Of a stretch of 64,000 nt of DNA, positions 15,926-55,112 are shown piece after piece. The first letter of the stretch is position 1, and the number at the start of each line of letters is the position of its first letter. Below the pieces are notes generated by a model that saw only the letters and a list, made by a program, of their open reading frames with translations, did not search any database and was not told the DNA's origin. The position numbers were made by a program, and so were the translations under genes. The stretch comes from Oscillospiraceae bacterium (GTDB taxonomy: Bacteria; Bacillota; Clostridia; UMGS1840; HGM11507), in assembly GCA_015068665.1 (NCBI GenBank), contig SVKB01000011.1, positions 4,858 through 68,857 on the forward strand, read 5' to 3'.

Positions 15926-15928
15926 ATA

Positions 15929-25282: not shown

Positions 25283-25283
25283 T

Positions 25284-33144: not shown

Positions 33145-33967
33145 AAGTAAAAAGCGTAAAAAAAGCGTTAAAATTCCCCGGACCATGCAAAGCAATATAT
33201 ATATAAAGAAAGCGATGTACTTATTCCGTAATTAAATGTTAAAGGCGCTTGATAAAATAAGGAATAAATCGCAAAGCGATTTATGGAATTAAAAGCTTTG
33301 CATTTTGAACGAAAATCCCCTCTCGATGTATTTAATACACCTTCGGGTGATTTTCGTTCAATCCAAGAAATTTTTCCTGCTTTTCGTTTGATATTGGCGG
33401 CATCGAGCCACCAATATCAAAAAAAGCGTAAAATCAACAAACCATGTAAAGCAAAATAATATAAATAGAAAATGTGTCTGTATCATATACAGGCACATTT
33501 ATTTGTAGTTTACATTACTATATTAAGGTATAAATTTGCAAGCAAATTTATGAATTTAAATGCTTTGCGTTATAAATGAAACCAGCCATCTGAGAGTTAT
33601 CAAAATTCGTTTTTTAAAAAATTCCAACGGAACCTATATCGCTTTAAAATTGTGATTTTTCAAGGCGGAAGGCTTTGGTAATACGAGGTATGCCAAAGGC
33701 GACAACGAAGAAAAAGCCTATTTTTAAGTGATATAGACGGATTTGGATAGCTCTTAGATGGCTGCAGATGTATCTCATACACCTTCGGGTGATTTTCGTT
33801 CAATCCAAGAAATTTTTCTTATCTTTCGTTTGATATTGGCGGCATCGAGCCACCAATATCAAAAAAGCGTAAATTCAACAAACCATGCAAAGCAAAATAA
33901 TATAAATAGAAAATGGGCGTGTCTCAATAAGTGATTTTTCACTCAATCGAGGCAACGCCCTTTGCTT
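33145..33967 (+). repeat. T-unit composite (three T-type units, R junction modules, one embedded MITE)
   Basis: Units start with AAAAAGCGT(T)AAAAT at about 33149, 33421 and 33863. They contain the 14-bp hairpin AAATGTGTCTGTAT-CAT-ATACAGGCACATTT (33470-33500), AAATTTGCAAGCAAATTT, an R junction (33309-33357) and the GCATCGAGCC-loop hairpin (33379-33427, 33826-33870). Confidence 0.8.
33583..33764. mobile_element. MITE-like element with 27-nt terminal inverted repeats (23/27 match)
   Basis: Left end CAGCCATCTGAGAGTTATCAAAATTCG. Reverse complement of the right end CAGCCATCTAAGAGCTATCCAAATCCG. It interrupts an R module (compare the intact copy at 62195-62241). Its interior is homologous in inverse orientation to 52565-52680. 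Confidence 0.55.
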
Positions 33968-35209
33968 TTAATGTTTTATATCGTCTGCGCTGATTTTTCT
34001 TGTATGCTCGGTATGGAACCAGTCTTTATTATTCTTTCTTATCACACCCACAACCGCAATGGGAAGCCAGGTATAGGTATAAACAAGATAGGGAATATAA
34101 TAAAGAAGCATTTTCTTTGTAAGCTTTCCTTCCAGCCATAAAACAAGCGGAGTAAGAAGAAGCTGACCGATCATAACAAGATTCCATAAATATGGCGGAA
34201 TTGCAAGATTAGTCAAAAACCACATTCCGAGAGGCGGATAGAACAGCTTTATAAAGGAAACGGTGGTTATTATAAGAAGCAGTATAAGAAGGGTTGGCTG
34301 AAGAAGATAAATTATACAGTCAAAGGCTAAAATATTATTTTCTTTAACCGCCTTTTTGAAAAGCTTCGGTATAAATCTTGAAGCAACATCCGCATGCCCC
34401 TGCATCCATCTTGTTCTTTGCTTTACCGACTGGGATAGGGTAAGCGGCTTTTCATCATAAACAATAGCATCGTAAGCATAGCCTACTGAGATACCGTTTA
34501 AAACAAGCTGCATGGTAAATTCCATATCCTCTGCAAGACAGGTAGCGCTCCAGCCGTATTCTTTAATAATATCGGTAGAAACCGCAAATCCGGTACCTGA
34601 AATCTGATTGGATAAGCCTAAATTACTTCTTGCGGTCTGGTAAACCTTATTAAGAAGCCAGAAGGAAATCGCATAGGATGCGGTAATCCATGAGTCATTG
34701 GGGTTCTTTGTATCAATATAGCCCTGAACTGCCTTAAAGCCCTGATTGAACTTTAAGTTCATTTCGGTCAGGAAATTCTTATGAACGATATTATCGGCAT
34801 CGAATACGCAAATTGCATCGTATTCCTTTTCCATTTCGAAAATTCTTCCGAACATCCAGTTAAGAGCATAGCCCTTACCCCTGTCACCCTCGGAAAATCT
34901 TTCATGAACCTCTGCACCGTGCTCTCTTGCGATTTTTGCGGTATCGTCATTACAGTTATCGGCAATAACGAATATATCGTACTTATCCTTATCGTAGTCA
35001 ATATTCTTAAGACTGTCAACAATCTCGGAAATAACGGTCTGCTCATTATGAGCCGCAACCACCATAGCAAAACGGTGCTTCTTATCAGACAGTACCTTTG
35101 CCTTGTTATCGCCAATGAAAGCAAAGATGGCAACCAGTATGTGATATAATCCGATGATTATAACAAAAAGCTGCATCAGAACTGATAAAGCGTATACTAT
35201 AACATTCAT
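33968..35209 (-). CDS. Family 2 glycosyltransferase, membrane-bound (processive beta-glycan synthase-like)
   Basis: 413 aa. N-terminal TM helix, GT-A motifs VVAAHNEQ, DNCNDDT, FDADN and the QRTRW-like motif QRTRWMQG, then C-terminal TM helices. Confidence 0.85.
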   Translation of the reverse strand: MNVIVYALSVLMQLFVIIIGLYHILVAIFAFIGDNKAKVLSDKKHRFAMVVAAHNEQTVISEIVDSLKNIDYDKDKYDIFVIADNCNDDTAKIAREHGAEVHERFSEGDRGKGYALNWMFGRIFEMEKEYDAICVFDADNIVHKNFLTEMNLKFNQGFKAVQGYIDTKNPNDSWITASYAISFWLLNKVYQTARSNLGLSNQISGTGFAVSTDIIKEYGWSATCLAEDMEFTMQLVLNGISVGYAYDAIVYDEKPLTLSQSVKQRTRWMQGHADVASRFIPKLFKKAVKENNILAFDCIIYLLQPTLLILLLIITTVSFIKLFYPPLGMWFLTNLAIPPYLWNLVMIGQLLLTPLVLWLEGKLTKKMLLYYIPYLVYTYTWLPIAVVGVIRKNNKDWFHTEHTRKISADDIKH

Positions 35210-35398
35210 TTTTATTACCTAGCCTTTCTCAATACATAAAAACGATATTACTTTTTTCGCAATTTTCCATTCTAAAATAGAATATACTACATTTATTCAC
35301 TTTTTGCAAGAGTTTTAATAAAAATTTTAAAAGGCGGAATTGACTTTTCTCTTTTTCCATAGTAATATTATTATATATCAGTATGTAAAAGAGGTTTT

Positions 35399-35980
35399 AT
35401 GATGAACAGTAAGGAAAGATTTGTTGAATTATACAAAAAATACATAACAAGAGAGGGAAGTGACAAGCTTCTTAACTATCTTTTATCGGATAAGTGCGAT
35501 TTCTTTGAAGCACCTGCCAGCACAAGGTATCACCTTTCAAGCCCGGGCGGGCTTTGTACCCACTCTTTAAATGTTTACGACTGCTTAAAGGCTTATCTTG
35601 ACCGCCCCTATGCAAAAGAAACCTTCGGACTTGACTATTCCGAAGAAACTATTGCAATTGTTTCTCTTCTTCACGATTTATGCAAGATAAACTGCTATAA
35701 AAAGGGCTTCCGTAATGTAAAGGATGAAACGGGGAAATGGATTCAGGTTCCGAACTATGAATTTGACGATCCCGTTCCTTACGGTCACGGTGAAAAATCA
35801 GTATATATAATTTCAGGCTTTATGCGTCTTACAAGGGAAGAGGCATTTGCAATAAGATATCACATGGGCTACTCAGGCACCGAGGATACAAGAAATGTAT
35901 CCAAGGCATTTGAGGCATTTCCTCTTGCATTTGCGGTATCCACCGCCGATATGGAGGCAACCTTCCTTCTGGAGCAGTAA
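35399..35980 (+). CDS. HD-domain phosphohydrolase
   Basis: 193 aa. H...HSLNV...LLHDLCK...RYHMG signature of the HD superfamily. Confidence 0.75.
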   Translation: MMNSKERFVELYKKYITREGSDKLLNYLLSDKCDFFEAPASTRYHLSSPGGLCTHSLNVYDCLKAYLDRPYAKETFGLDYSEETIAIVSLLHDLCKINCYKKGFRNVKDETGKWIQVPNYEFDDPVPYGHGEKSVYIISGFMRLTREEAFAIRYHMGYSGTEDTRNVSKAFEAFPLAFAVSTADMEATFLLEQ

Positions 35981-35982
35981 TT

Positions 35983-36609
35983 ATGGACATTTTAAATGAG
36001 CTTAAATCAAAAATTCTTGAATGGGGTGCCTTTGAGGTCGGTTTTTTCAATGATGATTTCAATGGCTATAAAAACGGAATTTCCTTTTATGTTAAAATGT
36101 CGCGGGATATTTTAAGCCAGATTGATACCGCCCCAACCTATACATATTTTCATCATTACCGCACCGTTAACGCTCTTATTGACAGCATAGCGTTAAAGAC
36201 GGGGATTTTTCTTGAAAAAAACGGCTACGGCTATTTTACCGTGCCCGCTTCCCAGACGGTTAACGGTCACGACTCCTATCAGGGAATTTATTCCCATAAA
36301 AGGGGAGCCGCATTGTCGGGGCTCGGATATGTGGGAAAGAGCAGTCTTTTTATAAGCAGCAAGCATGGAAGCGGAATAAGACTTGGCACTGTTTTTACCG
36401 ACCTTGACTTAAAGGCGGAAAATAAAATTTTAAATAATCTTTGCGGTGACTGCAGAATTTGTATTGAAAGCTGTCCTGCAATGGCGATTTCAGAAGAGGG
36501 GATTGACAGAAAGTCCTGCTCGGATTATATGAAAAAAGCCTTTCAGCACATCGGCAGAGGCTCGGTTTGCGGAATATGCATAAAAAAATGTCCTCACAAC
36601 AATTTGTAA
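35983..36609 (+). CDS. 4Fe-4S dicluster protein, epoxyqueuosine reductase (QueG)-like
   Basis: 208 aa. CGDCRICIESCP and CGICIKKCP ferredoxin motifs. The preceding region resembles the QueG/reductive-dehalogenase fold. Confidence 0.55.
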   Translation: MDILNELKSKILEWGAFEVGFFNDDFNGYKNGISFYVKMSRDILSQIDTAPTYTYFHHYRTVNALIDSIALKTGIFLEKNGYGYFTVPASQTVNGHDSYQGIYSHKRGAALSGLGYVGKSSLFISSKHGSGIRLGTVFTDLDLKAENKILNNLCGDCRICIESCPAMAISEEGIDRKSCSDYMKKAFQHIGRGSVCGICIKKCPHNNL

Positions 36610-36635
36610 AAGGCGGGTTTCCCAGGGAGGTAGTT

Positions 36636-37211
36636 ATGGTTATCGGTATTATGGGCTATTCGGGCTCGGGAAAATCCACTTTATCCGAAGAGTTTAAAAA
36701 GCTTGGCGCTTTTGTTATAGATGCGGATAAAATTGGAAAGGATATATTAAGTCCGGGAAGTGAAGGTCTTAAAAAAGTGATTTCGGTATTCGGTGAAGAA
36801 TTTTTGTTTCCCGACGGAAGCTTAAACCGAAAAATGCTTGGCGAGGTTGTTTTTAAAAGCCGTGAAAAATTAGAGCTTTTAAACAGCATTACCTGGGCAC
36901 AAATAGATAAAAAAATCAAAGAAGCAGTAGCAGCCTCAGAAGAAAGGGTAACGATTATAGATTGTCCTCTTTTATATAAGGTTTCCTCATATAAGCTTTG
37001 CCATGAGGTTATTTTTATAAATACTCCCGATGAAATTCTTATAAAAAGGATAATGAAAAGAGACGGGCTTGACTATAATACTGCAAAAGCCAGGATAGAT
37101 TCCCAGAAGGATGAGGCTTTTATAAAGCATGCAACAATAATTCTTGAAAATACAAGTGTGGAAGGCTTAAAAGCCGATGCCGAAAGGCTTATGAAAGGAT
37201 GGTTAAAATGA
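36636..37211 (+). CDS. coaE: Dephospho-CoA kinase
   Basis: MVIGIMGYSGSGKSTLSEEF P-loop start behind GGGAGG. The track start at 36567 overlaps the preceding gene and is an extension. Confidence 0.9.
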   Translation: MVIGIMGYSGSGKSTLSEEFKKLGAFVIDADKIGKDILSPGSEGLKKVISVFGEEFLFPDGSLNRKMLGEVVFKSREKLELLNSITWAQIDKKIKEAVAASEERVTIIDCPLLYKVSSYKLCHEVIFINTPDEILIKRIMKRDGLDYNTAKARIDSQKDEAFIKHATIILENTSVEGLKADAERLMKGWLK

Positions 37212-38593
37212 CAAATAAGGAAGAACTTTTATTAATGAAAAGGGAGCAGGGCTACGATTCGGTAACCCAGTCACAGAAAAAGAAGATTTTCGATTTTTCC
37301 GAGGGCTATAAGGAATTTATAGGAAGGGCAAAAACCGAAAGAGTTTTTGTTAAAGACACAATTGAACTTCTAAAAAAGGAAGGCTTTAAGAAATTTTCTC
37401 CCGATATGAAATTAAAGCAGGGAGACAAGGTATATTTTGAAAACAGAAAAAGAGCTCTGATTGCAGTAAAAATGGGTAAAAAAAGCTTAAGTGAAGGGGT
37501 AAGTATGATAGGTGCGCATATTGACTCACCAAGACTTGACTTAAAGCCGATTCCCCTGTATGAGGCTGAAAATACCCTTTATATCAAAACCCACTATTAC
37601 GGCGGAATTAAAAAATATCAGTGGCCTGTAATTCCGCTTTCAATGTTCGGTACGGTTGCTCTTAAAAACGGTAAAACCGTTGATATTGTTATAGGCGAAG
37701 ACGAAAAGGATCCGATTTTCGTTATTACCGATATTCTTCCACATCTCGGAAATACCCAGTACAAGAAAACTCCTGCCGAGATTATCCATCCCGAACAGCT
37801 TAATGCTATCGGCGCTACCATTCCTTATGAGGATAAGGAGGCTTCGGGCAGAGTAAAATTAAACTTTCTAAATATTATCAATAAGAAATATAATATTACC
37901 GAGGAGGATTTTATTTCCGCGGAAATAACTCTTGTTCCTGCTCTTAAGCCAAGGGATGCGGCTATTGATTCAAGCCTTGTTGCCGCTTACGGTCAGGATG
38001 ACAGGGTTTGTGCATACACAGGTCTTATGGCACTTCTTGACTCTAAGGAAGAAGCAAAAACCCAGCTTCTTTTGCTTTCGGATAAGGAAGAGGTAGGCTC
38101 AATGGGAAATACCGGTATGCAGTCAAAATTCTTCGAATTCACATTAGAAGCACTTTGCGAAAATCAGGGAGTAAAATTAAGAGAGGCCCTGTGGAATACC
38201 GAATGTTTATCAGCCGATGTTTGTGCCGCTTATGACCCTAATTTCCCCGAAGTTTATGAAAAGAACAACTCGGTGTTCTTAAACGGAGGCGTTTCTCTTA
38301 TGAAATATTCGGGTGCAAGGGGTAAATCGGGCACCTCGGATGCAAGCGCAGAGCTTTTGGGAAAAATAAGAGGTCTTTTTGATAAGGCTTCGGTTAAATG
38401 GCAGATTGGCGAGCTTGGAAAAACCGATGAAGGCGGCGGCGGAACAATTGCACAGTTCGTGGCAAACCTGGGATGTGAGGTAATCGACTGCGGAGTTGCC
38501 CTTCTTTCAATGCACTCACCCTATGAGGTTGCTTCAAAGTATGATATTTATATGACATATAAGGCATATAAAACCTTTTTTGAAAAAGCATAG
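37208..38593 (+). CDS. M18 family aminopeptidase
   Basis: About 461 aa. GAHIDSPRLDLKP, DDRVCAY, DKEEVGS and LSMHSP motifs of aspartyl/M18 aminopeptidases. The alternative ATG at 37199 is also possible. Confidence 0.85.
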   Translation: MTNKEELLLMKREQGYDSVTQSQKKKIFDFSEGYKEFIGRAKTERVFVKDTIELLKKEGFKKFSPDMKLKQGDKVYFENRKRALIAVKMGKKSLSEGVSMIGAHIDSPRLDLKPIPLYEAENTLYIKTHYYGGIKKYQWPVIPLSMFGTVALKNGKTVDIVIGEDEKDPIFVITDILPHLGNTQYKKTPAEIIHPEQLNAIGATIPYEDKEASGRVKLNFLNIINKKYNITEEDFISAEITLVPALKPRDAAIDSSLVAAYGQDDRVCAYTGLMALLDSKEEAKTQLLLLSDKEEVGSMGNTGMQSKFFEFTLEALCENQGVKLREALWNTECLSADVCAAYDPNFPEVYEKNNSVFLNGGVSLMKYSGARGKSGTSDASAELLGKIRGLFDKASVKWQIGELGKTDEGGGGTIAQFVANLGCEVIDCGVALLSMHSPYEVASKYDIYMTYKAYKTFFEKA

Positions 38594-38935
38594 CCTTCTT
38601 AATGAGGAGAAGGTGTCAGCGATAGCTGACGGATGAGATATAAGATATAAATCCTTCGGATTTTCGATATGTTTTGCTAAAGCAAAACTCGATATGTGCT
38701 TCGCACTCGATATGTTGTCTTGCGACAACGAGACAGGTAGGGGCGTTTATTACCGCCCGAAAGCCCTCCTTGCCTAAAGGAGGGGGGACCGCTTTAGCGG
38801 TGGGAGGATTTTTGAAAAGGTGTAATATAAATCCCTATGGGATTTTCGATATGTTTTGCTAAAGCAAAACTCGATATGTGCTTCGCACTCGATATGTTCC
38901 TTTGGAACTCGATATGTTCCTTCGGAACGAGATAA
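38593..38935 (-). repeat. V module, two CATATCGAG bead arrays (inverse orientation) and a GC-rich W5 module forming the whole aminopeptidase-era spacer
   Basis: V at 38593-38637 overlaps the TAG stop. Array 1 is at 38631-38733 and array 2 at 38821-38935; both lack the CAATTTTAATTG unit. W5 at 38740-38828 equals the inverse of 42621-42700. Confidence 0.85.
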
Positions 38936-38948
38936 AAGGAGAGCTAAA

Positions 38949-39830
38949 ATGAAAAGCGGATTTATAAGCGTAGTAGGAAGAACAAATGCAGGGAAGTCAA
39001 CACTGGTCAATTCTCTTATCGGAGAAAAAATTGCAATTATCTCCAATAAGCCCCAGACCACCCGCTACAGAATTATGGGAATAAGAAATGAAGAGGAGTG
39101 TCAGATAATTTTTACCGACACTCCGGGAATACATAAGCCCAAAACCAGACTTGGCGACTTTATGATAAATGAAGCCAACGAGGCTCTTAACGATACCGAT
39201 GCGGCTCTTCTTGTAATCGAGCCGGTTGACAATGTGGGAATAAGTGAGAAAAAGCTTATTGAAATCCTTAAAAAGTCAGGTATTCCCGCAATACTTGTTA
39301 TCAATAAAATTGATACAATTAAAAAGGAAAGCCTGTTTCCCATAATTGAAAAATACTCCTCCGAGTTTGATTTCGATGCAATCATTCCCGTAAGCGCAAA
39401 AACAGGAGACGGAGTTTCGGTTTTACTTGAAGAAATAAAAAAATACTTAACTGAAGGTCCTATGTTCTTCCCCGAAGATATGGTAACCGATTCACCCATA
39501 AAGCAAAGATTATCCGAAATTGTAAGAGAAAAGCTTTTATGGTCTCTTGATAAGGAAATACCTCACGGGATTGCAATAGAGGTTACTAAAATGGATGAGG
39601 ACAAAAATAAAGTAGCCCTTGATATTACCATTTACTGTGAAAAGCAGTCCCATAAGGGAATTATTATCGGTAAGGGCGGAGAGCTTTTAAAAACAGTTGG
39701 TACAAGAGCCCGTTACGATATGGAAAAGCTTCTCGGAAAAAAAGTCGGTCTTACTCTTTGGGTTAAGGTCAAGGAGGGCTGGCGTGACAGCGTGATGCTT
39801 CTTAAAAACTTCGGGTTTAATGAGGAATAA
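38949..39830 (+). CDS. era: GTPase Era
   Basis: MKSGFISVVGRTNAGKSTLVNSL..DTPG..NKID..KH domain. ATG 38949 lies behind AAAGGAGAG. The 31 extra codons in the track (start 38856) are translated repeat sequence. Confidence 0.95.
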   Translation: MKSGFISVVGRTNAGKSTLVNSLIGEKIAIISNKPQTTRYRIMGIRNEEECQIIFTDTPGIHKPKTRLGDFMINEANEALNDTDAALLVIEPVDNVGISEKKLIEILKKSGIPAILVINKIDTIKKESLFPIIEKYSSEFDFDAIIPVSAKTGDGVSVLLEEIKKYLTEGPMFFPEDMVTDSPIKQRLSEIVREKLLWSLDKEIPHGIAIEVTKMDEDKNKVALDITIYCEKQSHKGIIIGKGGELLKTVGTRARYDMEKLLGKKVGLTLWVKVKEGWRDSVMLLKNFGFNEE

Positions 39831-40281
39831 TTTGAAAATCAGGAATTAGGAATGAAGTAAGGCAAGCATGACATATAAATGCAGAATTCAGAGTGCAGAA
39901 TGCAGAATGATATGCCGCAAGCGGCATAGTGAATTGCACCTTTCGGTGCATGAATTGTTATCAGCTTGATAACATGAATTGATTTTTACAAATCATGAAT
40001 TGTTGACTTATGTCAACATTAAGGATAGGACGGATATGCCCGAAAGTGGTTAATGAATTTAGTTGCAGTATCATATTTCTTTTTATTTAATGGACTACAC
40101 TTCATTACACCTCATCCGAGTTGCTATGCAACCCACCTTCTCCTCAAGGAGAAGGCTTTGGCATCCGTCCTTTTCTCGTTGCCGAAAGGCAACATATCGA
40201 GTGCGAAGCACATATCGAGCAATTTTAATTGCATATCGAGTTTTGCTTTAGCAAAACATATCGAAAATCCCAAAGGGATTT
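39831..40281 (+). repeat. C composite repeat starting at the era stop codon, with P hairpin split by an insertion
   Basis: AGGAAT and TGCAGAAT words, then TGAATTG 4 times. P left arm at 40027-40040 and P right arm at 40160-40171. Complete 5-hairpin CATATCGAG array at 40171-40281. Confidence 0.85.
40041..40159. repeat. 119-nt insertion in the loop of the P hairpin, carrying a V module (40108-40156)
   Basis: Intact P elsewhere reads GGACGGATATGCC-ATTC-GGCATCCGTCC. Here the arms are separated by sequence ending in CACCTCATCCG-AGTTGCTATGCAAC-CCACCTTCTCCTCAAGGAGAAGGC. Confidence 0.7.
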
Positions 40282-40318
40282 AAAAAAAGCGCCAAACGCT
40301 TTCGTTTGGTGCTTTTTA
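40282..40318. terminator. Bidirectional intrinsic terminator (era / 40337 gene)
   Basis: AAAAAAA-GCGCCAAACG-CTTT-CGTTTGGTGC-TTTTT between convergent genes. Confidence 0.7.
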
Positions 40319-40336: not shown

Positions 40337-41065
40337 CTAATTGTATAAATATTTTAAATAATCAAAATATATTTCACTATGATAGTTTTCCAGTTCTTCT
40401 TTGATATCAAAAAGCAAGTAGATATCGTTTATGAATTCTGTTTCAGTGCATATAAATCCGGAAGATTCTACAAGATTTTTCACCAGAGAATAAATATAAG
40501 CAGTTTTATTATACACTTCGTCGAGTTTTTGATAAAATCCGTCAAGGTTTTCCTTTGATGTGAGGTCTGATAGAATAATATACATCATTTCTTTATATTT
40601 AATCAGGGAATTATAGTATTCCGATATATATTTGACATCATCTGCCAATCCCTGATAATAGGTTATATCACTATTATGAAAATAACCAGTCCAATGCGAC
40701 TTGTTGAATCTGAAATCCGAGTAAGAGTATATGTTGTCACATAAATCTGTAATTCGTCCTGCTTCATACAAACACTCAAAAACAAAAGCTATTTCCGTTT
40801 TTTCATTATATCGCATAATGGTCGCCGTATTTGTTTCTCCGTTCCATCCGACTTCACAGCCAAGAATTTCAGCTGCTTTTCTTAAAGGTACATAAGTGGT
40901 GCCGTTATAAAGAATGTTATCAGCATTTACCGGGTTTCCATTTACATTTAGGTTAACCATGTTAAAATGTACCGGAATTGTCTGCTGGCTGTTATCGGCA
41001 AGTGTTGAAACAGTGTTGAAAATAAAAATAAATACTGTTGCCAATAGTATTAATCTTTTTTTCAT
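40337..41065 (-). CDS. Secreted protein with copper-amine-oxidase-N-like (stalk) domain
   Basis: Start moved to MKKRLILLATVFIFIF (41065) behind GAGGTGG. GTTYVPLRKAAEILGCEVGWNGETNTATI motif. C-terminal helical region of unknown function. Confidence 0.65.
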   Translation of the reverse strand: MKKRLILLATVFIFIFNTVSTLADNSQQTIPVHFNMVNLNVNGNPVNADNILYNGTTYVPLRKAAEILGCEVGWNGETNTATIMRYNEKTEIAFVFECLYEAGRITDLCDNIYSYSDFRFNKSHWTGYFHNSDITYYQGLADDVKYISEYYNSLIKYKEMMYIILSDLTSKENLDGFYQKLDEVYNKTAYIYSLVKNLVESSGFICTETEFINDIYLLFDIKEELENYHSEIYFDYLKYLYN

Positions 41066-41119
41066 ATTGTCCACCTCTGAATAATTTATTTTAAAATAGT
41101 ATATCATATAATTCTATAA

Positions 41120-41139
41120 TACGCAAGTGCGTATACGCA
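41120..41139. promoter_or_regulatory. Candidate operator: TACGCA-AG-TGCGTA palindrome plus third half-site TACGCA
   Basis: Perfect 6+6 inverted repeat in the divergent region between the XRE regulator and the 40337 gene. Confidence 0.35.
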
Positions 41140-41181
41140 AAAACATAAATTATTTTAAAATGACCTTGAGAGGTGTTTTAA

Positions 41182-41424
41182 ATGGATGTTAAAGATATGG
41201 TTGTAAAAAGATTTAAGGAATTATGTGCAGAAAGAAATATGAGAATAAATGAGCTTGCGAATATATCAGGCGTTACTCCGTCAACTGCGTACAGTATGAT
41301 GGATGCCTCACGGAGAGATATATCAATAAAAACCATTAAGAAATTTTGTGATGGTCTGGAAATAACCTTGGGTGAATTTTTCTCGACAAAGGATTTTGAC
41401 AGTCTTGAGCAGGAAATACAGTAA
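41182..41424 (+). CDS. XRE-family helix-turn-helix transcriptional regulator
   Basis: 80 aa. RFKELCAERNMRINELANISGVTPSTAYSMM is a Cro/C1-type HTH. Good SD (GAGAGG). Confidence 0.8.
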   Translation: MDVKDMVVKRFKELCAERNMRINELANISGVTPSTAYSMMDASRRDISIKTIKKFCDGLEITLGEFFSTKDFDSLEQEIQ

Positions 41425-41440
41425 CGGCTTGGGTATCGGT

Positions 41441-41551
41441 TCTTTCTCGTTGCCGAAAGGCAACATATCGAGTTCCAAAGGAACATATCGAGTGCGAAGC
41501 ACATATCGAGTTTTGCCTTGGCAAAGCATATCGAAAATCCCAAAGGGATTT
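41441..41551 (+). repeat. CATATCGAG bead array (variant with extra TTCCAAAGGAA unit, lacking CAATTTTAATTG unit)
   Basis: TTTCTCG, TTGCCGAAAGGCAA, w, TTCCAAAGGAA, w, TGCGAAGCA, w, TTTTGCCTTGGCAAAG, CATATCGAA, AATCCCAAAGGGATT (w = CATATCGAG). Confidence 0.85.
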
Positions 41552-41578
41552 AAAAAAAGCACCAATTGGTGCTTTTTT
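41552..41578. terminator. Bidirectional intrinsic terminator (XRE gene / yesL)
   Basis: AAAAAAA-GCACCAATTGGTGC-TTTTTT, a perfect palindrome between convergent genes. Confidence 0.7.
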
Positions 41579-41581
41579 ATA

Positions 41582-42334
41582 TTAATCCTTTTTATATTTC
41601 TCAATTGTTCTTAGAGCATAAAGGTTTATAAGAAGGATTGAGAAGCCGTAAAAGATAAGTGAAAATGCCATATAACCGAGCAGTGTGGTCATAAAAAAGG
41701 CAATGGCATAAATCAAAATAAGAATAATTAAAATCAAAATATTCTGTGGAAGATTTATAAGGGTAAAGGCAAGTGCCTTTTTATAAATATCCCCGGTTTT
41801 TATTTTAAAGTTTACAGTAAGACAGCCGATATAAATATTCATTATAAGATAGATTACAAGGGCTATTATAAAGGCAGGCATTACCGAAGAACCAAGACCG
41901 CTTATAAAATAGAATTTAAAGGAAACGGTAAAAAGATAAAAGACAACTGCATTTACCGCAAAAATTATCAGGGATTGCTTTATATTTTCCTTTATACCGT
42001 TTAAAAAATCGCTCATAATAAATACCGGCTTTTCCTCGGCTAAGTATGATGCCACACGGCAAAAACCGAAGGTAACGGGTGAAATTCCCACCAAAGTAAA
42101 GTAAAGGGCTGAAAATATATTGAAAATATACTCTCCGCCGGGGCTTAACCCAAGCTCGTGCTTTACTGCCTCCATAAAAACTGCAAAAATTGCAATTAAT
42201 GGAATGGCAAGAAAATTTATGAAGAATATTTTTGTAAAATAAAGGTATGAGCTGTAGAAAAACTGAAAAAAACCATTTTTCCGTTTTTCTCCCTTTTCCA
42301 CACCCTTACCGGGTTTTGAATAGTTGTTAAACAT
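41582..42334 (-). CDS. YesL family membrane protein (DUF624)
   Basis: Start moved to MFNNYSKPGKGVEKGEKRKNGFFQFF (42334) behind GAGG; this N-terminus is typical of YesL. Associated with a sugar ABC locus. The track start at 42397 lies inside a repeat. Confidence 0.75.
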   Translation of the reverse strand: MFNNYSKPGKGVEKGEKRKNGFFQFFYSSYLYFTKIFFINFLAIPLIAIFAVFMEAVKHELGLSPGGEYIFNIFSALYFTLVGISPVTFGFCRVASYLAEEKPVFIMSDFLNGIKENIKQSLIIFAVNAVVFYLFTVSFKFYFISGLGSSVMPAFIIALVIYLIMNIYIGCLTVNFKIKTGDIYKKALAFTLINLPQNILILIILILIYAIAFFMTTLLGYMAFSLIFYGFSILLINLYALRTIEKYKKD

Positions 42335-42363
42335 AAATACCTCTTTAGAAATCACAAATAAAG

Positions 42364-42625
42364 GATAATATGCCACAAGTGGCATAATGAATTGCACCTT
42401 GCGGTGCGTGAATTGTTATCAATCTGATAACATGAATTGATTTTTTAAAAATCATGAATTGTTGACTTATGTCAACATTAAGGATAGGACGGATATGCCA
42501 TTCGGCATCCGTCCTTTTCTCGTTGCCGTAAGGCAACATATCGAGTTCCAAAGGAACATATCGAGTGCGAAGCACATATCGAGTTTGCAAGGCAAACATA
42601 TCGAAAATCCCATAGGGATTTATAT
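42364..42625 (+). repeat. C composite repeat, 5-prime truncated (TGAATTG array, intact P hairpin 42486-42515, CATATCGAG array 42515-42625)
   Basis: Same module order as 11476-11750. The array has TTGCCGTAAGGCAA and TTCCAAAGGAA units and lacks the CAATTTTAATTG unit. Confidence 0.85.
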
Positions 42626-42740: not shown

Positions 42741-42965
42741 GCTTTGCGATTTATTCCTTATTTTATCAAGCGCCTTTAACATTAGTGTTATTCCGTACCT
42801 TGTACGGAGTGATATTTTTGATAAATCAAAAGTGTTATTGAAACCTGACGGTTTCAGTGGTATTTTATCCGCCTTTATTAAGCTGTGCGAAGCACAATAC
42901 CACTGCGCAGCAATATCACTTGCTAACAGCAAATATCACTCGCCGTAAGGCGAATAAAACTGCAA
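42741..42965 (-). repeat. GTGATAT dyad bead array (Q), inverse copy of 62340-62575
   Basis: Shadow ORFs 42720..42932 and 62379..62582 translate identically for about 63 aa, and 42697..42948 versus 62363..62617 for about 68 aa. The DNA is therefore essentially identical. Confidence 0.85.
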
Positions 42966-49659: not shown

Positions 49660-51930
49660 ATGAAAAGAAAATTACCCTTTTTAAAAAAATTGAATATTAA
49701 TTTTAATAAAAAAGGTGTGTTCAGATATTTTCTTATTACTTATATGTTAGTATTTATGGTGCCGGCTCTGATAAGCTTTGTTATGCTTGCCGGTGCCCTT
49801 GATACAGCTAAAAACGAAGCTGCTGAGAAAAACCTTATTATTTCTCAGCAGTTTAAATATTCAGCGGAACAAATTTTAATAAGGCTGGAAAATATCAGAG
49901 CAAGAGTTATTTCGGATAAGGAGCTTACGGGCTTAAATTATGAAACCGAAAACATTACCACCCCCGAGCGCTACCGCCTTACAGGGGATATAAAAAGACT
50001 AAATGACTGTATTCTTACGGAAAACGATTTTATCGGAAGCATCTATCTTTACAGAAACGATAAAAATATTGCAATGGGAACGGCAGGTCTTTTTTCACTT
50101 GAAAGGCTCTACCGTACAGGCTTTTCGGGCTCAGACCTTCCCTACGGACGGCTTTATGACAGGCTAAGCCTTTCAGAAAGCTTCTATATTCCGTATCGGG
50201 AGCTTAATATAAACGGAATTTATGAGGACAGTATTTTATGCATTCTCCCGATTGAAAAGGGAGTATATCTTACCGACTGGACACATATTATTATGACCTT
50301 ACCGAAATCCCGTTTTGCAGGTAAGATAAAAACCGAAAAGGAAAATGCGGATATCCTTATTCTTGATAAGGAAAATAAAATTATTCCCCTTTACGGAAAG
50401 TGTGAGGGCTTAAGCCTTGACTACAGCTATTTTAAAAAGGATAAAACGGTTTACACCGATAAGAAAAGGGGAGCGGTTATAACCTGTTTAAGCTCAGAGC
50501 TTACCGACTGGAAGTATATAATGATAGAGCCTGATTCATCTTATTTAGGAAGGGTTCACCGTCTGTGGGGCTTTATTCTTTTTGGCTTTATCCTTGCCCT
50601 TCTTGCAGGAATGTTTATCATTTTTATATTTTCCAAACGGAACTATGAAAAGATAAGAAGCATTGCCGACCTTTTCGGGAAAAATGATACTGAAGCAAAC
50701 GAGCTTCAGTATATAAACGAGAATATATTAAAATCCATGGGCGAACGAGCCGAGCTTATAAAACTTAAGGAAAAAACCGGTGCCGATAAGGAAGAAGAAA
50801 AAATAAGAGAGCTTTTAAGAGGAGTTAAGTTTGAGAATTTAACCGACAAGGCATATCTTGACGAGCTTTCGGATCTGTTTGAGGGGGATAAGGTAAGAGT
50901 TATTGCCCTTTATCCCGAGAATACCCACGAGCTTTATTTCGGTGCTGATATTTCAGCCTCAGAAAAAGAGGAGGAAACCGCCTTTATTATAAGGAATACT
51001 GCCTCGGAGGAGCTTAGGGGAAAATCGGTCGTAATTGATGGAATTATTGCCCTTATTCTTGATAAAGCGTATAGCGATGAAGCTCTTTACGGTAAAATAA
51101 GAGATCTTATTGATATTTATAAAAAGCATTTTAACCTTACTGTAAGTGCAGGCATCGGAGGTGCCCAGTGGGGGGCAGGAAGTCTTAAAAGGGCTTATGT
51201 AACCGCCCGTAAGGCATTGGAATATAAATTTATTTCGGGTAAAGGAAGCATAAACCTTTGGGACGAGGTTTCCAAAAAAAATTCAGGGTTCAGCTATCCG
51301 CCCGAAACCGAGCAAAAGCTTATTAACTGTGTAAAATCGGGAAGCTTTAAGGATGCGAGCGCTATTACCGAGGAAATATTCAAAACTAATTTTATAGAAA
51401 GTCAGCCTTCGGTGGAAATGGCAAAATGCCTTATCTTCAACCTGGAGGGTACAGTTTTAAAAACGGTTCCCAAGGACACGGACGGAGAATATAAGCTTGA
51501 TACCGCCTTCATAAGCGAGCTTCTTACCCCGGAAAATATATGGGAAATAAAAAACTATTTGATAAAAATACTTGAAAAAATATGCGAATATAATCAAAGT
51601 CAGCTTTCTGATAATGCAGGAGCTGTTTCGGAGAAAATAAGCAGGTTCATAGCTGAAAGGTGCTGTGATCCTCAGCTTAATATAAGCCTTATTGCAGAGC
51701 ATTTTTCCCTTTCGGGAGCTTATATCTCAAAGCTTTTTAAGGAAAGCCGCGGAACAAGCATCCTGGACTTTATTCACACCGAAAGATTAAAAAAAGCAAA
51801 GGAGCTTTTAAAATCGGGAAAATCCGTTTCCGAGGTTGCTCTGGCTACGGGATACAGTAACTCCAATGTGTTTATCAGAGTATTTAAAAAATACGAAAGG
51901 GTAACACCGGGTCAGTTTATCAAAATGTAG
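49660..51930 (+). CDS. Membrane-anchored AraC-family transcriptional regulator with extracytoplasmic sensor region
   Basis: 756 aa with two TM segments (about aa 22-44 and 300-322). C-terminal AraC HTH (LNISLIAEHFSLSGAYISKLFKE...ATGYSNSNVFIRVFKKYERVTPGQF). Confidence 0.8.
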   Translation: MKRKLPFLKKLNINFNKKGVFRYFLITYMLVFMVPALISFVMLAGALDTAKNEAAEKNLIISQQFKYSAEQILIRLENIRARVISDKELTGLNYETENITTPERYRLTGDIKRLNDCILTENDFIGSIYLYRNDKNIAMGTAGLFSLERLYRTGFSGSDLPYGRLYDRLSLSESFYIPYRELNINGIYEDSILCILPIEKGVYLTDWTHIIMTLPKSRFAGKIKTEKENADILILDKENKIIPLYGKCEGLSLDYSYFKKDKTVYTDKKRGAVITCLSSELTDWKYIMIEPDSSYLGRVHRLWGFILFGFILALLAGMFIIFIFSKRNYEKIRSIADLFGKNDTEANELQYINENILKSMGERAELIKLKEKTGADKEEEKIRELLRGVKFENLTDKAYLDELSDLFEGDKVRVIALYPENTHELYFGADISASEKEEETAFIIRNTASEELRGKSVVIDGIIALILDKAYSDEALYGKIRDLIDIYKKHFNLTVSAGIGGAQWGAGSLKRAYVTARKALEYKFISGKGSINLWDEVSKKNSGFSYPPETEQKLINCVKSGSFKDASAITEEIFKTNFIESQPSVEMAKCLIFNLEGTVLKTVPKDTDGEYKLDTAFISELLTPENIWEIKNYLIKILEKICEYNQSQLSDNAGAVSEKISRFIAERCCDPQLNISLIAEHFSLSGAYISKLFKESRGTSILDFIHTERLKKAKELLKSGKSVSEVALATGYSNSNVFIRVFKKYERVTPGQFIKM

Positions 51931-52325
51931 AAAAGCATTAAAATTCCCCGGACCACGCAAAGCAAAATAATATAAAGAGTAAAATGTGTCTGTATCATAT
52001 ACAGGCACATTTATTTATAGTTTACATTACTATATTAAGGTATAAATTTGCAAGCAAATTTATGAATTAAAAGCTTTGCGTTTTGAACGAAATCAGCCAC
52101 TCGACGTACTTAGTACGCCTTCGGGTTCCACCCCTTCGGGGCTGAATTCGTCCAATCCAAGAAATTTTTTCTGCTTTTCGTTTGATATTGGCGGCATCGA
52201 GCCACCAATATCAAAAAAAGCGTTAAATCGACAAACCATACAGAGCAAAATAGTATAAATAGTAAATGTGTCTGTATCATATACAGGCACATTTTGTTTT
52301 AGTATACATTACTATATTAAGGTAT
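51931..52325 (+). repeat. Two T-type units starting at the stop codon of the AraC-type gene
   Basis: AAAAGCATTAAAATTCCCCGGACCACGCAAAGC. 14-bp hairpins at 51982-52012 and 52264-52294. R junction with an extra CCCCTTCGGGG hairpin at 52087-52151. GCATCGAGCC-loop hairpin at about 52174-52220. Confidence 0.8.
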
Positions 52326-52899
52326 AAATCCTTCGGATTGTCGATATGTTTTGCTAAAGGCAAAACTCGATATGCAATTAAAATTGCTCGATATGTGCTT
52401 CGCACTCGATATGTTGCCTTTCGGCAACAAGAAAAAAGGACGGATGCCGAATGGCATATCCGTCCTATCCTTAATGTTGACATAAGTCAACAATTCATGA
52501 TTTTTTTAAAATCAATTCATGTTATCGAATTGATAGCCGTCGGAGAGCTATCCGAACTCGCCTCAAACCCTTAAAAATAGGCTTTTTCTTTGTTGTCGGT
52601 TTCGATATACCTTGTATTATCAAAACCTTCCGCCTTGAAAAATCACAATTTTAAAGGGTTATAGGTTCTATAAGAATTTTTAAATTAGGAAATTTTTAGA
52701 TAGAATGAGGCAAAAACGCAGGTAATATTTCGGATATTACCGAGGATTTTAACGATATTATATCAAAAATTTACAATTTAAAAACGAGTTCGGATAACTT
52801 TCCGACGGCTACCAATTCACGCACCGCAAGGTGCAATTCACTATGCCGCTTGCGGCATATCATTCTGCATTCTGCACTCTGAATTCTGCATTTATAATT
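52326..52899 (-). repeat. C composite repeat (inverse), co-oriented with and abutting the stop of the HAD gene, interrupted by a MITE
   Basis: On the plus strand: a complete 5-unit CTCGATATG array at 52326-52437, P at 52437-52467, then the CAATTCA array interrupted at 52536-52809, then ATTCTGCA words up to 52899. Confidence 0.85.
52536..52809. mobile_element. MITE-like element, ~25-nt terminal inverted repeats, flanked by TA
   Basis: TA-GCCGTCGGAGAGCTATCCGAACTCG ... CGAGTTCGGATAACTTTCCGACGGC-TA (2 mismatches). It is inserted in the loop/arm of the GTTATC..GATAAC hairpin, which is intact at 62838-62856 and 11519-11536. No ORF inside. Confidence 0.6.
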
Positions 52900-53457
52900 T
52901 CATTCCTTCCACTTAACAATCCTGTCCCCTTTGACAAGATAGGCATTTTCCGAAATTTCTGCAAGGGGAGAATCGGAATAAGAATCCGAATAAAAGTTTT
53001 CTATTCTTTCATTGCATATTGCCTTAAATCTTACCACCTTTTCCTCACCGTAGCAGTTAAGACCGTCATATTTTCCGGTATACTTATCCACTCTTGATGC
53101 TTCAAGGCTTTTTATTCCGATGCTTTGGCATATTGGCTTTAATAAAAATTCAGGAGAAGCAGATATTATCATATCATTCTCTGCCTGAATATCAAAATAC
53201 CAGCTTTTTAAATTTCTCTTATGCTCCTTCCAGAAGGAAACAATATGGGAATCAATATCCTTTATTCCCTTAAAGAATATGTAAAATTTCTCTTTGAACT
53301 GTGTTTTATTTACTATTCCCAAAATAAATTTTAAAAACCAGTAGCCCTGATAGGGTAAGAATCTTATAATAAGCGGGAATTTCTTCAAGCTGTAGAAATA
53401 AAAATCCCTTGTACTGTCACCCTTATAAATAGTATTGTCAAAATCGTAAACGTTCAT
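52900..53457 (-). CDS. HAD-superfamily hydrolase (subfamily IB-like)
   Basis: MNVYDFDNTIY (DxDxT motif) behind GAGG. 185 aa. The track start at 53469 is 4 codons longer. Confidence 0.75.
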   Translation of the reverse strand: MNVYDFDNTIYKGDSTRDFYFYSLKKFPLIIRFLPYQGYWFLKFILGIVNKTQFKEKFYIFFKGIKDIDSHIVSFWKEHKRNLKSWYFDIQAENDMIISASPEFLLKPICQSIGIKSLEASRVDKYTGKYDGLNCYGEEKVVRFKAICNERIENFYSDSYSDSPLAEISENAYLVKGDRIVKWKE

Positions 53458-53474
53458 ATTAAACCTCATAAAGA

Positions 53475-53500
53475 GGGGCTGTAAATAAATTTACAGCCCC
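53475..53500 (-). terminator. Terminator hairpin GGGGCTGTAAAT-AA-ATTTACAGCCCC downstream of the M23 peptidase gene
   Basis: Same 26-nt hairpin as at the S-element ends. The minus strand continues TCTTTAT. Confidence 0.55.
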
Positions 53501-53507
53501 CGTTCTT

Positions 53508-55112
53508 TTAATATATATAATTTGCAGGGTTAAGAGTTTTTCCGTTAAGCCTTATTTCAAAGTGAAGATGCGGTCCGGTTGAATTACCCGTATTTCCCAC
53601 TCTTCCGATCATTTCGCCCTTTGCAACCTTTTTTCCGTTGGAAACGTTGATAGAGCTTAAATGAGCATAATAGGTAACATAGCCGTTACCGTGATTGATT
53701 TTGATAAGCTTTCCGTAGCCTCCACTCCAGCCGGCAAAGGAAACGGTTCCGCCGTCCGCCGCATAAACAGGGCTTCCGGATGCACCGGCTAAATCAAGAC
53801 CTGTATGGAAGCCTCTTGAACGGTTTCCGTAACGGGAGGTGATTGAGCCTGCCGCAAATGGATTTCTGAACTTACCGGTTGCCATATAAACGGGTCTTTT
53901 CTTTGTTCCCACCTTAACCTGTTTGGTAACAGGCTCCTTAAGAACCTCTTCGGCAGTGGCAATTCTTTCGGTGATAATGCCGTTTTCCTTGTAAACATCA
54001 TAGGAAACCTCTTTTTCACCGTACTCACCGTCCGAAACAACAATTGTTATTCCCGTATACTGAGTGGCATCCTTTATTTTATTTGTATCATAAGCGATTT
54101 TTTCAACCGCCGTAACAGCTTCCTTGGTTTTTACCGCAATTGCAGGAGTGGTGTCTGAAACATTAAGCTTCTGACCAATCTGCAGTCTTTCGGGGGTAAG
54201 TCCCGGATTCATATCAAGCACCTTTTGGGTAGTGGTGCCTGTAAGCTCGGCAATTTCCGAAATGGTTTCCCCTTCCTTTACGGTGTGGGTTTTAATTCCG
54301 CCAACCGGTGTTTTAAGGGCAACATAAGCATCCTCAAAGGGTAAAACGGAGTTTTTCGGAACTCTTGCGGAAACAATTTCAACATTCTTATTAAAGCCAA
54401 CCTCCAGGGTGGTTTCGCTTGTGAATTCCTTTTTGTAATCCTCTAAAAGCTTTTCAGCCTCTTCCTCGGTTTTAACAGCGGTTACAATAACACCCTCTGC
54501 ACTGATTCCGTAGGCATCCTGCCTTCCGTCATAAACTGCGGCAATGGCATTTTTCGCACAGGAGGCGGTAAGGAAATTATCTTTTGGAGAGATAACCGGA
54601 ATGATTTTCACATCCCCGATATCCGTAACCTTAAGGGCATCAAGTGCAATCCTTGCTTCCTCATAAGCATCAACCGCATCGCTTCTTTTGGCGGTAATTG
54701 CAACGGTTTTACCGTCACAGTTTATTCCGTAGCCAAAATCAAGACCGCTTCCTGCCCAGGCGCAGATAACAAGCACTAAGAATACGCCTGCGGCCATCTT
54801 ATCAAGCTTTACTATATCAAGATTTTTCAAAAAGCTGTATAAGCCTTCGCTTCCGATAAGCTCGGAAACTCTTTTTTTAGTGTTATTGTAAGAAGCCTTT
54901 ATTCTCTCAATAACCTTTTTAATGTCAAATTCTCTTACCTTATTTATAATATTTGTGAACTTACCTTTTATATCAACATTTTTTATGTGTGTTAAAACAT
55001 CTTTAATTCTTCCCTTTAAGTTCAACTCAGCTACCCTTGTAAAAGCCTTCTTGTAAATTTCCTTTGCCCCTTCAAAAAGCTTATACAAAGCCTCTTTCAG
55101 TTTACTTAACAA
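53508..55112 (-). CDS. M23 family peptidoglycan metalloendopeptidase with LysM domain
   Basis: 534 aa. TM anchor. LysM (HTVKEGETISEIAELTGTTTQKVLDMNPGL...IGQKLNV). M23 motifs HTGLDLAG and GNSTGPHLHFEIR. TTG start behind GAGGTG. Confidence 0.85.
   Translation of the reverse strand: MLSKLKEALYKLFEGAKEIYKKAFTRVAELNLKGRIKDVLTHIKNVDIKGKFTNIINKVREFDIKKVIERIKASYNNTKKRVSELIGSEGLYSFLKNLDIVKLDKMAAGVFLVLVICAWAGSGLDFGYGINCDGKTVAITAKRSDAVDAYEEARIALDALKVTDIGDVKIIPVISPKDNFLTASCAKNAIAAVYDGRQDAYGISAEGVIVTAVKTEEEAEKLLEDYKKEFTSETTLEVGFNKNVEIVSARVPKNSVLPFEDAYVALKTPVGGIKTHTVKEGETISEIAELTGTTTQKVLDMNPGLTPERLQIGQKLNVSDTTPAIAVKTKEAVTAVEKIAYDTNKIKDATQYTGITIVVSDGEYGEKEVSYDVYKENGIITERIATAEEVLKEPVTKQVKVGTKKRPVYMATGKFRNPFAAGSITSRYGNRSRGFHTGLDLAGASGSPVYAADGGTVSFAGWSGGYGKLIKINHGNGYVTYYAHLSSINVSNGKKVAKGEMIGRVGNTGNSTGPHLHFEIRLNGKTLNPANYIY

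Follow-up and report, generated by a model that had tools for sequence, protein, structure and literature searches.

An ATATCGA hairpin array as a probable arm of a dispersed, Gut-1-related mosaic repeat in gut and rumen Clostridia

Copies of a short intergenic array in the chromosome of an Oscillospiraceae bacterium differ from one another by complete hairpin-plus-word units, which raises the question of what the array is and how it comes to vary. We analyzed 64 kb of contig SVKB01000011.1 of this organism (here called the window; positions refer to it unless otherwise stated), in which a first-pass annotation had drawn attention to the array at 41445-41551 on the forward strand. The array is one of ten "arms" in the window, each about 105 nucleotides (nt) long and built on the word ATATCGA. 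Read on the ATATCGA strand, an arm has the form TCTCG-H1-w-...-w-H5, where w is ATATCGA, and it typically contains five mini-hairpins clamped by G...C with one word between neighbors. In our assessment, 41445-41551 is probably one arm of a dispersed, noncoding mosaic repeat family of gut and rumen Clostridia, a word-variant of the Gut-1 class, whose arms and cassettes insert into spacers and whose unit differences arise by recombination and slippage rather than by insertion of miniature palindromes.

The ten arms fall into three layouts. Six are type II (H1-H2-H3-H4-H5), for which the arm at 40174-40281 (+), situated downstream of era, serves as reference: TCTCG-H1(GTTGCCGAAAGGCAAC)-w-H2(GTGCGAAGCAC)-w-H3(GCAATTTTAATTGC)-w-H4(GTTTTGCTTTAGCAAAAC)-w-H5(AAATCCCAAAGGGATTT). 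Three, including the flagged arm, are type I (H1-Hx-H2-H4-H5); the flagged arm reads TCTCG-H1-w-Hx(GTTCCAAAGGAAC)-w-H2-w-H4-w-H5, with its words at 41465-71, 41485-91, 41503-09 and 41528-34 (+). The third layout, H1-H2-H4-H5, is found in the 38649 arm, which alone has three words; the other nine have four and measure 103-108 nt. No copy shows a permutation of hairpin order. All length differences within the window are whole units, as the first-pass annotation had claimed. Its comparison of the copies at 41441 and 40171, one unit gained and one lacking, corresponds to an extra Hx and a missing H3; the 38649 and 42518 arms, given there as 38631 and 42515, do lack H3 (38649 also lacks Hx), and the two TTCC-type units noted at 38821 are the two GTTCC-type units of 38829-38932. 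The annotation further placed every indel boundary at a 9-mer, CATATCGAG. The whole-unit part of that statement stands, but only seven of the nine letters, ATATCGA, make up the constant single-stranded word; the C and G at the two ends of the 9-mer close the neighboring hairpins. Where within a word an indel begins or ends cannot be fixed, since all the words are the same. H2 and its two words form an invariant unit of 27 nt, CATATCGAG-TGCGAAGCA-CATATCGAG.

The same construction extends well beyond this chromosome. A genome scan for three spaced words, covering one genome per species, returned at least 107 stretches, and nearly all of the matches listed were from metagenome-assembled genomes (MAGs) of rumen and gut Clostridia (Acutalibacteraceae, Oscillospiraceae/Ruminococcaceae, Christensenellaceae and "Feifaniaceae"); the comparative DNA throughout consists of MAGs and metagenome contigs. 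The matches listed (107 genome loci) and the window together gave 177 arrays. In this set, 255 of 296 distinct spacers were perfect end-anchored hairpins, and 215 of these 255 ran G...C. Across 22 type II arrays from about 19 species, the words were invariant, 97.4% of the hairpin cells were paired, and compensatory changes were present in 13 of 20 pairs; none of 500 shuffles matched the observed values for pairing or compensation. Pattern scans of metagenomes gave 0 and 7 loci, and the plasmid and phage collections contained no match to the arm family. Genome-scan matches in Pontibacillus, a Planctomycete, Prevotella and a few others were plain tandem repeats containing the word and unrelated to the arms; the pattern-scan matches among IMG/VR viral contigs were likewise just plain tandem repeats that contain the word.

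Four word families with the same hairpin-word build are present in the window (ATATCGA, AATTCAT, ATTTCAC and ATATCAC), and their loops are strongly polarized. On the word strand, G..A loops outnumbered T..C loops by 95:1 for ATATCGA, 22:0 for AATTCAT, 9:0 for ATTTCAC and 3:0 for ATATCAC. The pair closing the loop was C-G in about 80% of cases, and the loops were often GNA triloops; of 41 GNNA tetraloops just 17 were GNRA, the rest having a pyrimidine at position 3. Very stable DNA mini-hairpins, for example d(GCGAAGC), follow the rule of GNA or GNNA loops closed by C-G. The loop pattern of the arms appears to fit these DNA rules better than RNA rules; d(GCGAAGC) is the core of H2. Because variable hairpin lengths combined with a constant linker are sensible only if the hairpins fold, the arms may act in a folded, single-stranded state.

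How, then, do the units come to differ? The two four-word layouts, one with H2 in second place and one with H2 in third, are found in other species as well, and the contrast between 40174 and 41445 is therefore an established architectural dimorphism rather than a fresh gain plus loss. Other species also contain arrays enlarged to at least five words by tandem duplication of one unit (L057, L066, L079 and L089; L numbers denote loci and contigs used for comparison) or by tandem duplication of a two-unit block (L039 and L042). Such arrays bear the mark of unequal, in-register pairing at the words, and these tandem units suggest that slippage itself occurs. Of the two explanations offered by the first-pass annotation, the one in which the words serve as direct repeats for slippage or recombination is thus supported by the tandem-duplicated arrays, together with strain recombinants whose junctions lie in shared units (below).

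The other explanation, in which tiny palindromic elements insert again and again at a preferred 9-bp site, CATATCGAG, and duplicate it each time, is in our view very improbable. Identical 9-mers do flank every hairpin, which is formally like a target-site duplication. However, empty sites, which the annotation had proposed to look for, are not in excess: the 9-mer occurs 29 times in the window against 0.19 expected, with 29 of 29 inside the ten arrays and no lone copy, and ATATCGA occurs 44 times against 8.9 expected, with 39 copies in arrays and 5 solitary (about 9 expected), at or below chance. The fixed hairpin order, the recurrence of layouts across species and the invariance of H2 with its flanking words also speak against serial insertion, as do the presence of four words in nine of ten window arrays and the fact that extra units are tandem copies of their neighbors. 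The hairpin units do not qualify as miniature inverted-repeat transposable elements (MITEs), which combine terminal inverted repeats with a duplicated target and have empty target sites elsewhere. What does insert is an entire arm or cassette, 100-700 nt in length, and we know of no transposable element of 9-14 nt. A TA-flanked palindrome of 22 nt at 19951, taken in the annotation as proof that mini-insertions occur here, turned out to be a plain hairpin at 19951-19980 (10-bp stem TTAGCCGTCG...CGACGGCTAA, 10-nt loop) without insertion marks in the spacer between two large genes.

Strain-level contigs, fetched by exact matches to the flanking helix-turn-helix (HTH) and TetR proteins, showed how arrays change in practice. 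The flagged arm was unchanged in 10 of 10 such contigs, and the arms 41445, 38649/38829 and 11621/11749 had the same unit layout in every spanning contig (about 5-10 each). Arrays were altered only where the flanking genes were also altered. In L110, a five-word H1-Hx-H2-H3-H4-H5 array is joined on its left side to an HrcA/GrpE context. In L119, the 11749 arm passes into the tail of the arm at 40174 inside a stretch of about 77 identical nt; because this stretch is shorter than the assembler k-mer of 141, an assembly chimera is argued against. In L120 and L113, a different H5 and a creatininase block follow the last word, and in L109 and L117, H4, H5 and the tail are swapped together with a Fic-gene block. 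The recombinant junctions of L109, L110, L117, L119 and L120 fall in shared units, and those of L109, L113, L117 and L120 at a word or hairpin. If a type I and a type II arm crossed over at the invariant H2 unit, the expected products would be exactly the five-word array of L110 and, reciprocally, a three-word array like that at 38649; an array of the latter kind would also result if slippage deleted H3.

Arms were present at every strain-level synteny breakpoint examined. The block at 40337-42340, which encodes a Cu_amine_oxidN1-domain protein, an HTH protein and a 250-aa membrane protein, has arms at both bounds. Its left neighbor varies among contigs (L110, L113 and L115/L119) between Era, TetR and HrcA-GrpE; its right neighbor is the creatininase block in L113 and the Fic block in L109 and L117; and in L120 the creatininase block directly follows TetR, without the 40337-42340 block. 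Because the neighbors of this block change, the arms mark strain-level synteny breakpoints. Within 33968-39830, gene-block order also differs between species: GT2, a 193-aa protein and Fer4_16 lie upstream of CoaE-M18-Era in the window and downstream of Era in L141 and L143, and the block-order junctions between these contigs and the window are repeat-filled spacers.

The size of the inserting entity is seen at the junction between the M18 peptidase and Era genes, where we built a series of empty and filled sites from Era homologues. In L142 and L143 (Era 82% identical) only about 15 nt separate the M18 stop from the Era start. In L140 and L141 (Era 91-92% identical) the spacer consists of four ATGAATT units and a central hairpin, followed by a 118-aa PF05635 gene, another hairpin and four AATTCAT units that run straight into the Era ribosome-binding site (RBS); the 118-aa product is a TIGR02436 four-helix-bundle protein. 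The corresponding spacer of the window is gene-less and contains two ATATCGA arms. Therefore, whole arms or cassettes of 100-700 nt are inserted, and the content of a site turns over. No target duplication was visible at the Era locus, where the compared species are too diverged for exact alignment of the flanks.

The four-helix-bundle gene was the sole recurrent neighbor when genes next to arrays were clustered (6 of the 107 loci listed), and tblastn recovered PF05635 genes in the same number of loci, in addition to L140 and L141. In L082, L021, L094 and L060 the order is a promoter-like -35/-10 and a hairpin, then four words in reverse complement with their hairpins, a short center, three to four forward words with hairpins, and finally RBS and ATG; the word is ATATCGA in L082, L021 and L094 and AATTCAT in L060, and L014 has the same cassette design with another word (TATGTAAT/ATTACATA). 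Starting from the protein side, we found three more PF05635 genes (L145, L152 and L158) flanked by ATGAATT/AATTCAT arms between co-directional host genes. In total, arms lay within 200 nt of 9 of 9 distinct PF05635 genes examined in related Clostridia. A sigma-70-like promoter, with a -10 of TATAAT or TAAAAT, directly precedes the arm or arm pair in six loci (L020, L021, L060, L082, L094 and L087). It runs into the PF05635 RBS in five of them (L020, L021, L060, L082 and L094), and in L087 it runs into a truncated PF05635 start and then another gene. Judged from these motifs, the composites in L082, L021, L094, L060, L087 and L020 may carry their own promoter. The conserved -10 of these six loci (TATAAT or TGGTAAAAT) directly adjoins the opening hairpin (GATTTCA...TGAAATC) of the arm pairs, and three of the loci also have a -35 at a distance of 17 nt.

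Members of the PF05635 family are the open reading frames (ORFs) of 23S-rRNA intervening sequences (IVSs), selfish elements with complementary borders that are excised by RNase III, and the member that has been crystallized assembles as a homopentamer (PMC4990558). Avd, the accessory protein of diversity-generating retroelements, is a relative of the family (PMC10053308). By sequence, the closest solved structure is 2RLD, with five chains. The arrangement characteristic of rRNA IVSs, a PF05635 ORF enclosed by complementary borders, is absent from the window and present in the relatives L140, L141, L152 and L158.

Arms commonly occur in pairs. Over all loci, 54 of 69 adjacent arm pairs were inverted with complementary words, and such complementarity extends to five word families; minimum free energy (MFE) folds pair the inverted complementary arms, including across the gene in L152. 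Two of the window's word families, ATTTCAC and ATATCAC, are what Rfam calls Gut-1 (RF01706). A back-to-back arm pair of the third family ([AG]TGAAAT / ATTTCA[CT]) at 5448-5630 scored 70.2 bits at 5448-5523 (+) and 41 bits at 5546-5630 (-) against a Gut-1 gathering score of 50 bits. In the stretch 5448-5683, which lies downstream of a cluster of five tRNAs with its terminator, the inverted pair is followed by a partial third arm (29.5 bits). The fourth family forms an arm pair at 12164-12339 (GTGATAT four times, then ATATCAC twice), with GTGATAT/ATATCAC sister copies at 42800-42962 and 62349-62500; its scores were near threshold at 12268-12339 (-) (46.6 bits), 42892-42962 (-) (46.5) and 62349-62419 (+) (46.5).

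The flagged family stands outside Gut-1 as Rfam defines it. Against the Gut-1 covariance model the ATATCGA arms scored at most 19.7 bits (38869-38940) and the ATGAATT arm 24.6 bits, both under the gathering score, and a scan of the whole window at E <= 5 listed no ATATCGA or ATGAATT arm. Since the scores never exceed 25 bits, the ATATCGA arms are a word-variant of the Gut-1 class and not a member by Rfam's criterion. Their architecture is that of Gut-1, namely at least three short hairpins, a constant word and four words per unit, with a different word; within the Gut-1 seed alignment, both GUGAAAU and GUGAUAU words occur and an arm is succeeded by an inverted partner. At gathering and E-value thresholds, Rfam contained no family for the ATATCGA arms, returning only the weak Gut-1 cross-matches and chance matches (CRISPR-DR17 and snoRNAs). 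A literature search on the word, hairpin arrays and Gut-1 found no description of this repeat family, and its word families, arm pairs, PF05635 cassettes and role at strain-level breakpoints appear to be undescribed in the literature searched.

These observations are consistent with the following mechanism. An arm typically presents four copies of the 7-nt word between five short C-G-closed hairpins, whose sequences can vary freely while pairing is kept. Arms, arm pairs and arm-flanked cassettes are DNA inserted into intergenic spacers; the gene-carrying form contains the PF05635 gene for a 23S-rRNA-IVS, Avd-like, four-helix-bundle protein, and the window copies, which are gene-less, are presumably nonautonomous derivatives of such cassettes. 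Unit differences probably stem in part from two long-standing four-word layouts, with H2 second or third, and in part from homologous recombination or gene conversion between dispersed copies and from slipped or unequal pairing, both taking place in register at the identical words and at the 27-nt unit around H2. The direction of these events is one that we infer, and the arms may function, for example, as RNA-level stems that close the cassette or as words bound by a protein.

Several points weigh against this interpretation. Loop polarity follows the arm and not the direction of the flanking genes, which a simple mRNA-level function does not explain. The window composites join an ATGAATT arm to an ATATCGA arm, their words are noncomplementary, and they fold into eleven local hairpins. 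Inter-arm pairing is therefore not required in the window, and an arm-to-arm "ladder" of word pairing was rejected here as a universal feature. PF05635 genes are found in only 6 of the 107 array loci listed and are absent from the 64-kb window, so that the autonomous/nonautonomous relation between cassettes and gene-less arms is one that we propose tentatively. The Hx of this species (GTTCC...) cannot be shown to be homologous to the extra hairpin of other species (GCC...), and an old dimorphism is a matter of architecture only. The strain recombinants come from metagenome assemblies and could partly be chimeras. Finally, single-unit gain or loss at orthologous loci, which the first-pass annotation had suggested comparing between strains, was seen in none of the roughly 5-10 strain contigs per fixed locus; the units therefore turn over slowly, and their turnover goes with recombination between copies.

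A bolder form of the interpretation, which we consider possible but clearly less probable than the above, is that all arms, including Gut-1, are cis-elements of an unrecognized class of selfish cassettes around the PF05635 (S23p/Avd-like) gene. Such cassettes would insert between genes, even inside operons; their complementary arms would fold into a ladder of word helices with side hairpins and so seal the cassette as RNA or as single-stranded DNA (ssDNA), and the pentameric protein would read the words. Gene-less arms such as 41445-41551 would be MITE-like progeny; in some rumen and gut Clostridia these would have saturated the spacers between genes, and they would drive rearrangements there. 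Of comparable, tentative standing is the proposal that the arms are functional RNA modules, either leaders, trailers or Gut-1-type small RNAs (sRNAs) that present four words to a protein (for example, pentameric PF05635) or complementary arms that pair as a ladder of short helices and close a cassette, IVS-like, for RNase III processing or protection of mRNA ends. Gut-1, first described as an RNA candidate found solely in human-gut metagenomes (Weinberg et al. 2010), was graded a certain RNA on covariation (PMC2864571). The promoters before arms in six loci, the complementary words of paired arms with their MFE folds, and the RNase III-excised, complementary borders of 23S-rRNA IVSs with the same ORF family (PMC4990558) would all suit an RNA role. 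The flagged arm itself is probably transcribed, because it is placed between a stop codon and a terminator. Against this, arms occur in both orientations relative to genes without bias (by crude ORF calls), loop polarity tracks the arm and not the transcribed strand, and the hybrid composites of the window cannot pair arm to arm. About twenty arms per 64 kb are, moreover, more typical of selfish repeats than of regulators, and the G-T and A-C mismatches (9 versus 4) are too few to indicate a strand.

Movement as ssDNA would be expected if the arms resembled repetitive extragenic palindromic (REP) or REPIN elements mobilized by a REP-associated tyrosine transposase (RAYT; HUH/Y1 type). The word plus hairpin would then be the recognition unit, inverted pairs the mobile doublets and single arms decayed remnants. 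Arms are indeed dispersed and strictly intergenic (on the window ORF map they occupy five of the seven convergent spacers and none of the eight divergent ones), adjacent arms are mostly inverted, and the word-strand loops are G..A, with T..C at most once, and often GNA or GNNA closed by C-G, which is the rule for very stable DNA hairpins. In addition, in relatives whose HTH protein is 89% identical (L168-L171), a RAYT-like gene for a Y1 transposase of 150-165 aa (about 1748-2252, orthologous to window ~41425-41580) lies directly 3' of the HTH gene, where the window has the flagged arm. However, the best NCBIfam match of these proteins, NF047646 ("REP-associated tyrosine transposase"), scored 59-68 bits, under the cutoff of 80, and their PF01797 scores were 26.7 bits in L168 and 18.2 bits in L169, the latter under the cutoff of 23. 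Flanking REPs are a hallmark of RAYT genes, and no arms flank the RAYT-like gene in L168-L171; nor did the window or roughly 1 Mb of array-bearing loci contain a RAYT. The arm-linked gene is PF05635 and not a transposase. REPs are also single conserved palindromes of about 20-35 nt with a conserved 5' tetranucleotide, whereas arm units are variable hairpins of 9-20 nt strung on a constant 7-nt linker. We regard mobilization by a RAYT as rather unlikely, though a live alternative.

The family can also be compared with other known systems. Like the REP/bacterial interspersed mosaic element (BIME)/REPIN-RAYT systems of Enterobacteria and Pseudomonas, the arms are high-copy, intergenic, hairpin-based and mosaic, often form inverted doublets and are hot spots of rearrangement, and close relatives of the window species have a RAYT-like gene; unlike them, the arms conserve the linker and not one imperfect palindrome, and no RAYT-arm adjacency was found. 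Gut-1 shares with the arms short C-G-closed hairpins, a constant word, four words per arm, frequent inverted pairs and copies in the same window. It differs in that ATATCGA is not the reverse complement of GUGAAAU/GUGAUAU, and it was described as an orphan sRNA candidate only, without its repeat nature, word families, arm pairs or gene linkage. The IVSs of 23S and 16S rRNA with an S23p (PF05635) ORF are selfish, sporadically distributed insertions (PMC4990558). The arm cassettes, unlike these, lie between protein-coding genes and are bordered by hairpin-word arms rather than a plain stem; the window copies lack an ORF. BOX elements of Streptococcus pneumoniae (boxA-(boxB)n-boxC) are modular intergenic repeats whose internal module number varies. 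In that variation between copies they resemble the arms; their modules are conserved and 45-59 nt long, with no alternation of word and hairpin and no four-word norm. Clustered regularly interspaced short palindromic repeats (CRISPR) also alternate a constant repeat with variable "spacers," and H5 gave a weak chance match to CRISPR-DR17. The arm repeat, however, is only 7-9 nt, in place of 23-50 nt; its spacers are self-complementary hairpins of 9-20 nt conserved between copies, not unique sequences of 25-50 nt; arrays stop at about four words, with some twenty arrays per 64 kb; and no cas genes are present in the window.

With the arms, much of the "dark" intergenic DNA in uncultured rumen and gut Clostridia (here about 20 arms per 64 kb) can be identified concretely, and the orphan Rfam family Gut-1 becomes just one word-variant of a broader modular repeat class. 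That class is physically tied to the PF05635/S23p/Avd-like family. The role of this family, and how the rRNA IVSs that contain it move, have been questions for 30 years, and the link makes both testable. In practice, metagenome assemblies break at arms, which can give rise to rearrangements or imitate them.

The flagged arm occupies the 3' region of an Xre-type HTH gene (41182-41424) and folds into five local hairpins (z = -6.4). Directly 3' of it, at 41552-41578, is a hairpin composed of an A-run, GCACCAATTGGTGC and a T-run, which by sequence and fold resembles a two-way terminator shared with the convergent gene 41582-42340. A second copy of this module follows the 40174 arm at 40284-40317 and was recovered by a terminator scan. 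A promoter scan around the window arrays gave nothing over background.

Among the other ATATCGA arms, 11621-11723 (+) and 11749-11851 (+) are type II and form a tandem pair situated downstream of the TetR gene, the second being the crossover partner of 40174 in L119. Type II arms also lie at 27204-27311 (-), in the spacer between a Bmp-family gene and the RNase Y gene; at 52326-52432 (-), with one bulged H4 and an H5 that begins CAATCC; and at 62651-62753 (-), with one mismatch in H5. The M18 peptidase/era spacer holds both the three-word arm 38649-38733 (-), H1-w-H2-w-H4-w-H5, and the type I arm 38829-38932 (-), whose TCTCG end abuts the era RBS. The remaining type I arm, 42518-42621 (+), is the one whose H4, H5 and tail are altered in the contigs with different right-hand genes (L109 and L117). 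It stands back-to-back with a partner arm of the second word family at 42387-42460 (+), which contains four copies of [AG]TGAATT (reverse complement of AATTCA[TC]), and between the composite's two arms is the central hairpin GGACGGATATGCCATTCGGCATCCGTCC at 42487-42514 (+). Equivalents of the partner arm are found at 11491-11563 (+), 39929-40001 (+), 62811-62883 (-) and, as a partial copy, 52492-52520 (-), and further copies of the central hairpin at 11590-11617 (+), 52438-52465 (-) and 62757-62784 (-). At about 40040-40165, a central hairpin (GGACGGATATGCC...GGCATCCGTCC) has an insertion of about 115 nt in its loop (CCCGAAAGTGGTTAATGAATTTAG...), relatives of which in L110 and L113 mark it as a nested module within the composite.

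The window as a whole is ordinary chromosome of a spore-former from the Ruminococcaceae sensu lato, encoding MreB, BipA, RNase Y, RNase J, Era and tRNAs. Its proteins include no insertion sequence- or Y1-type transposase, reverse transcriptase or PF05635 member, and the sole recombinase is an XerC/XerD-type tyrosine recombinase (13954-14859; Phage_integrase and SAM-like domain) encoded among housekeeping genes, probably a chromosomal Xer rather than a mobile-element integrase. A contig look-up with the HAD protein of 52900-53469 gave no match. About 5 kb of the intergenic DNA is a repeat mosaic. Other, unrelated repeat families of 57-183 nt with 60-93% identity fill the remaining long spacers, at 33157-33930, 51927-52330, 62034-62340 and 62534-62690 (for example, ...AAAAAGCGTTAAAATTCCCCGGACCATGCAAAGCAAAATAATATAAA...). 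A repeat of 288 nt (95% identity) at 15643-15930 and 25001-25288, also seen at 20083-20175 and 53474-53510, sits next to the downstream ends of the large surface-protein genes 15929-19804 and 25284-26909 (RNase Y). Within this repeat is a hairpin, AGGGGCTGTAAAT..ATTTACAGCCCCT, and the repeat gave weak matches to RsaE/RoxS of 31-33 bits against a gathering score of 79.

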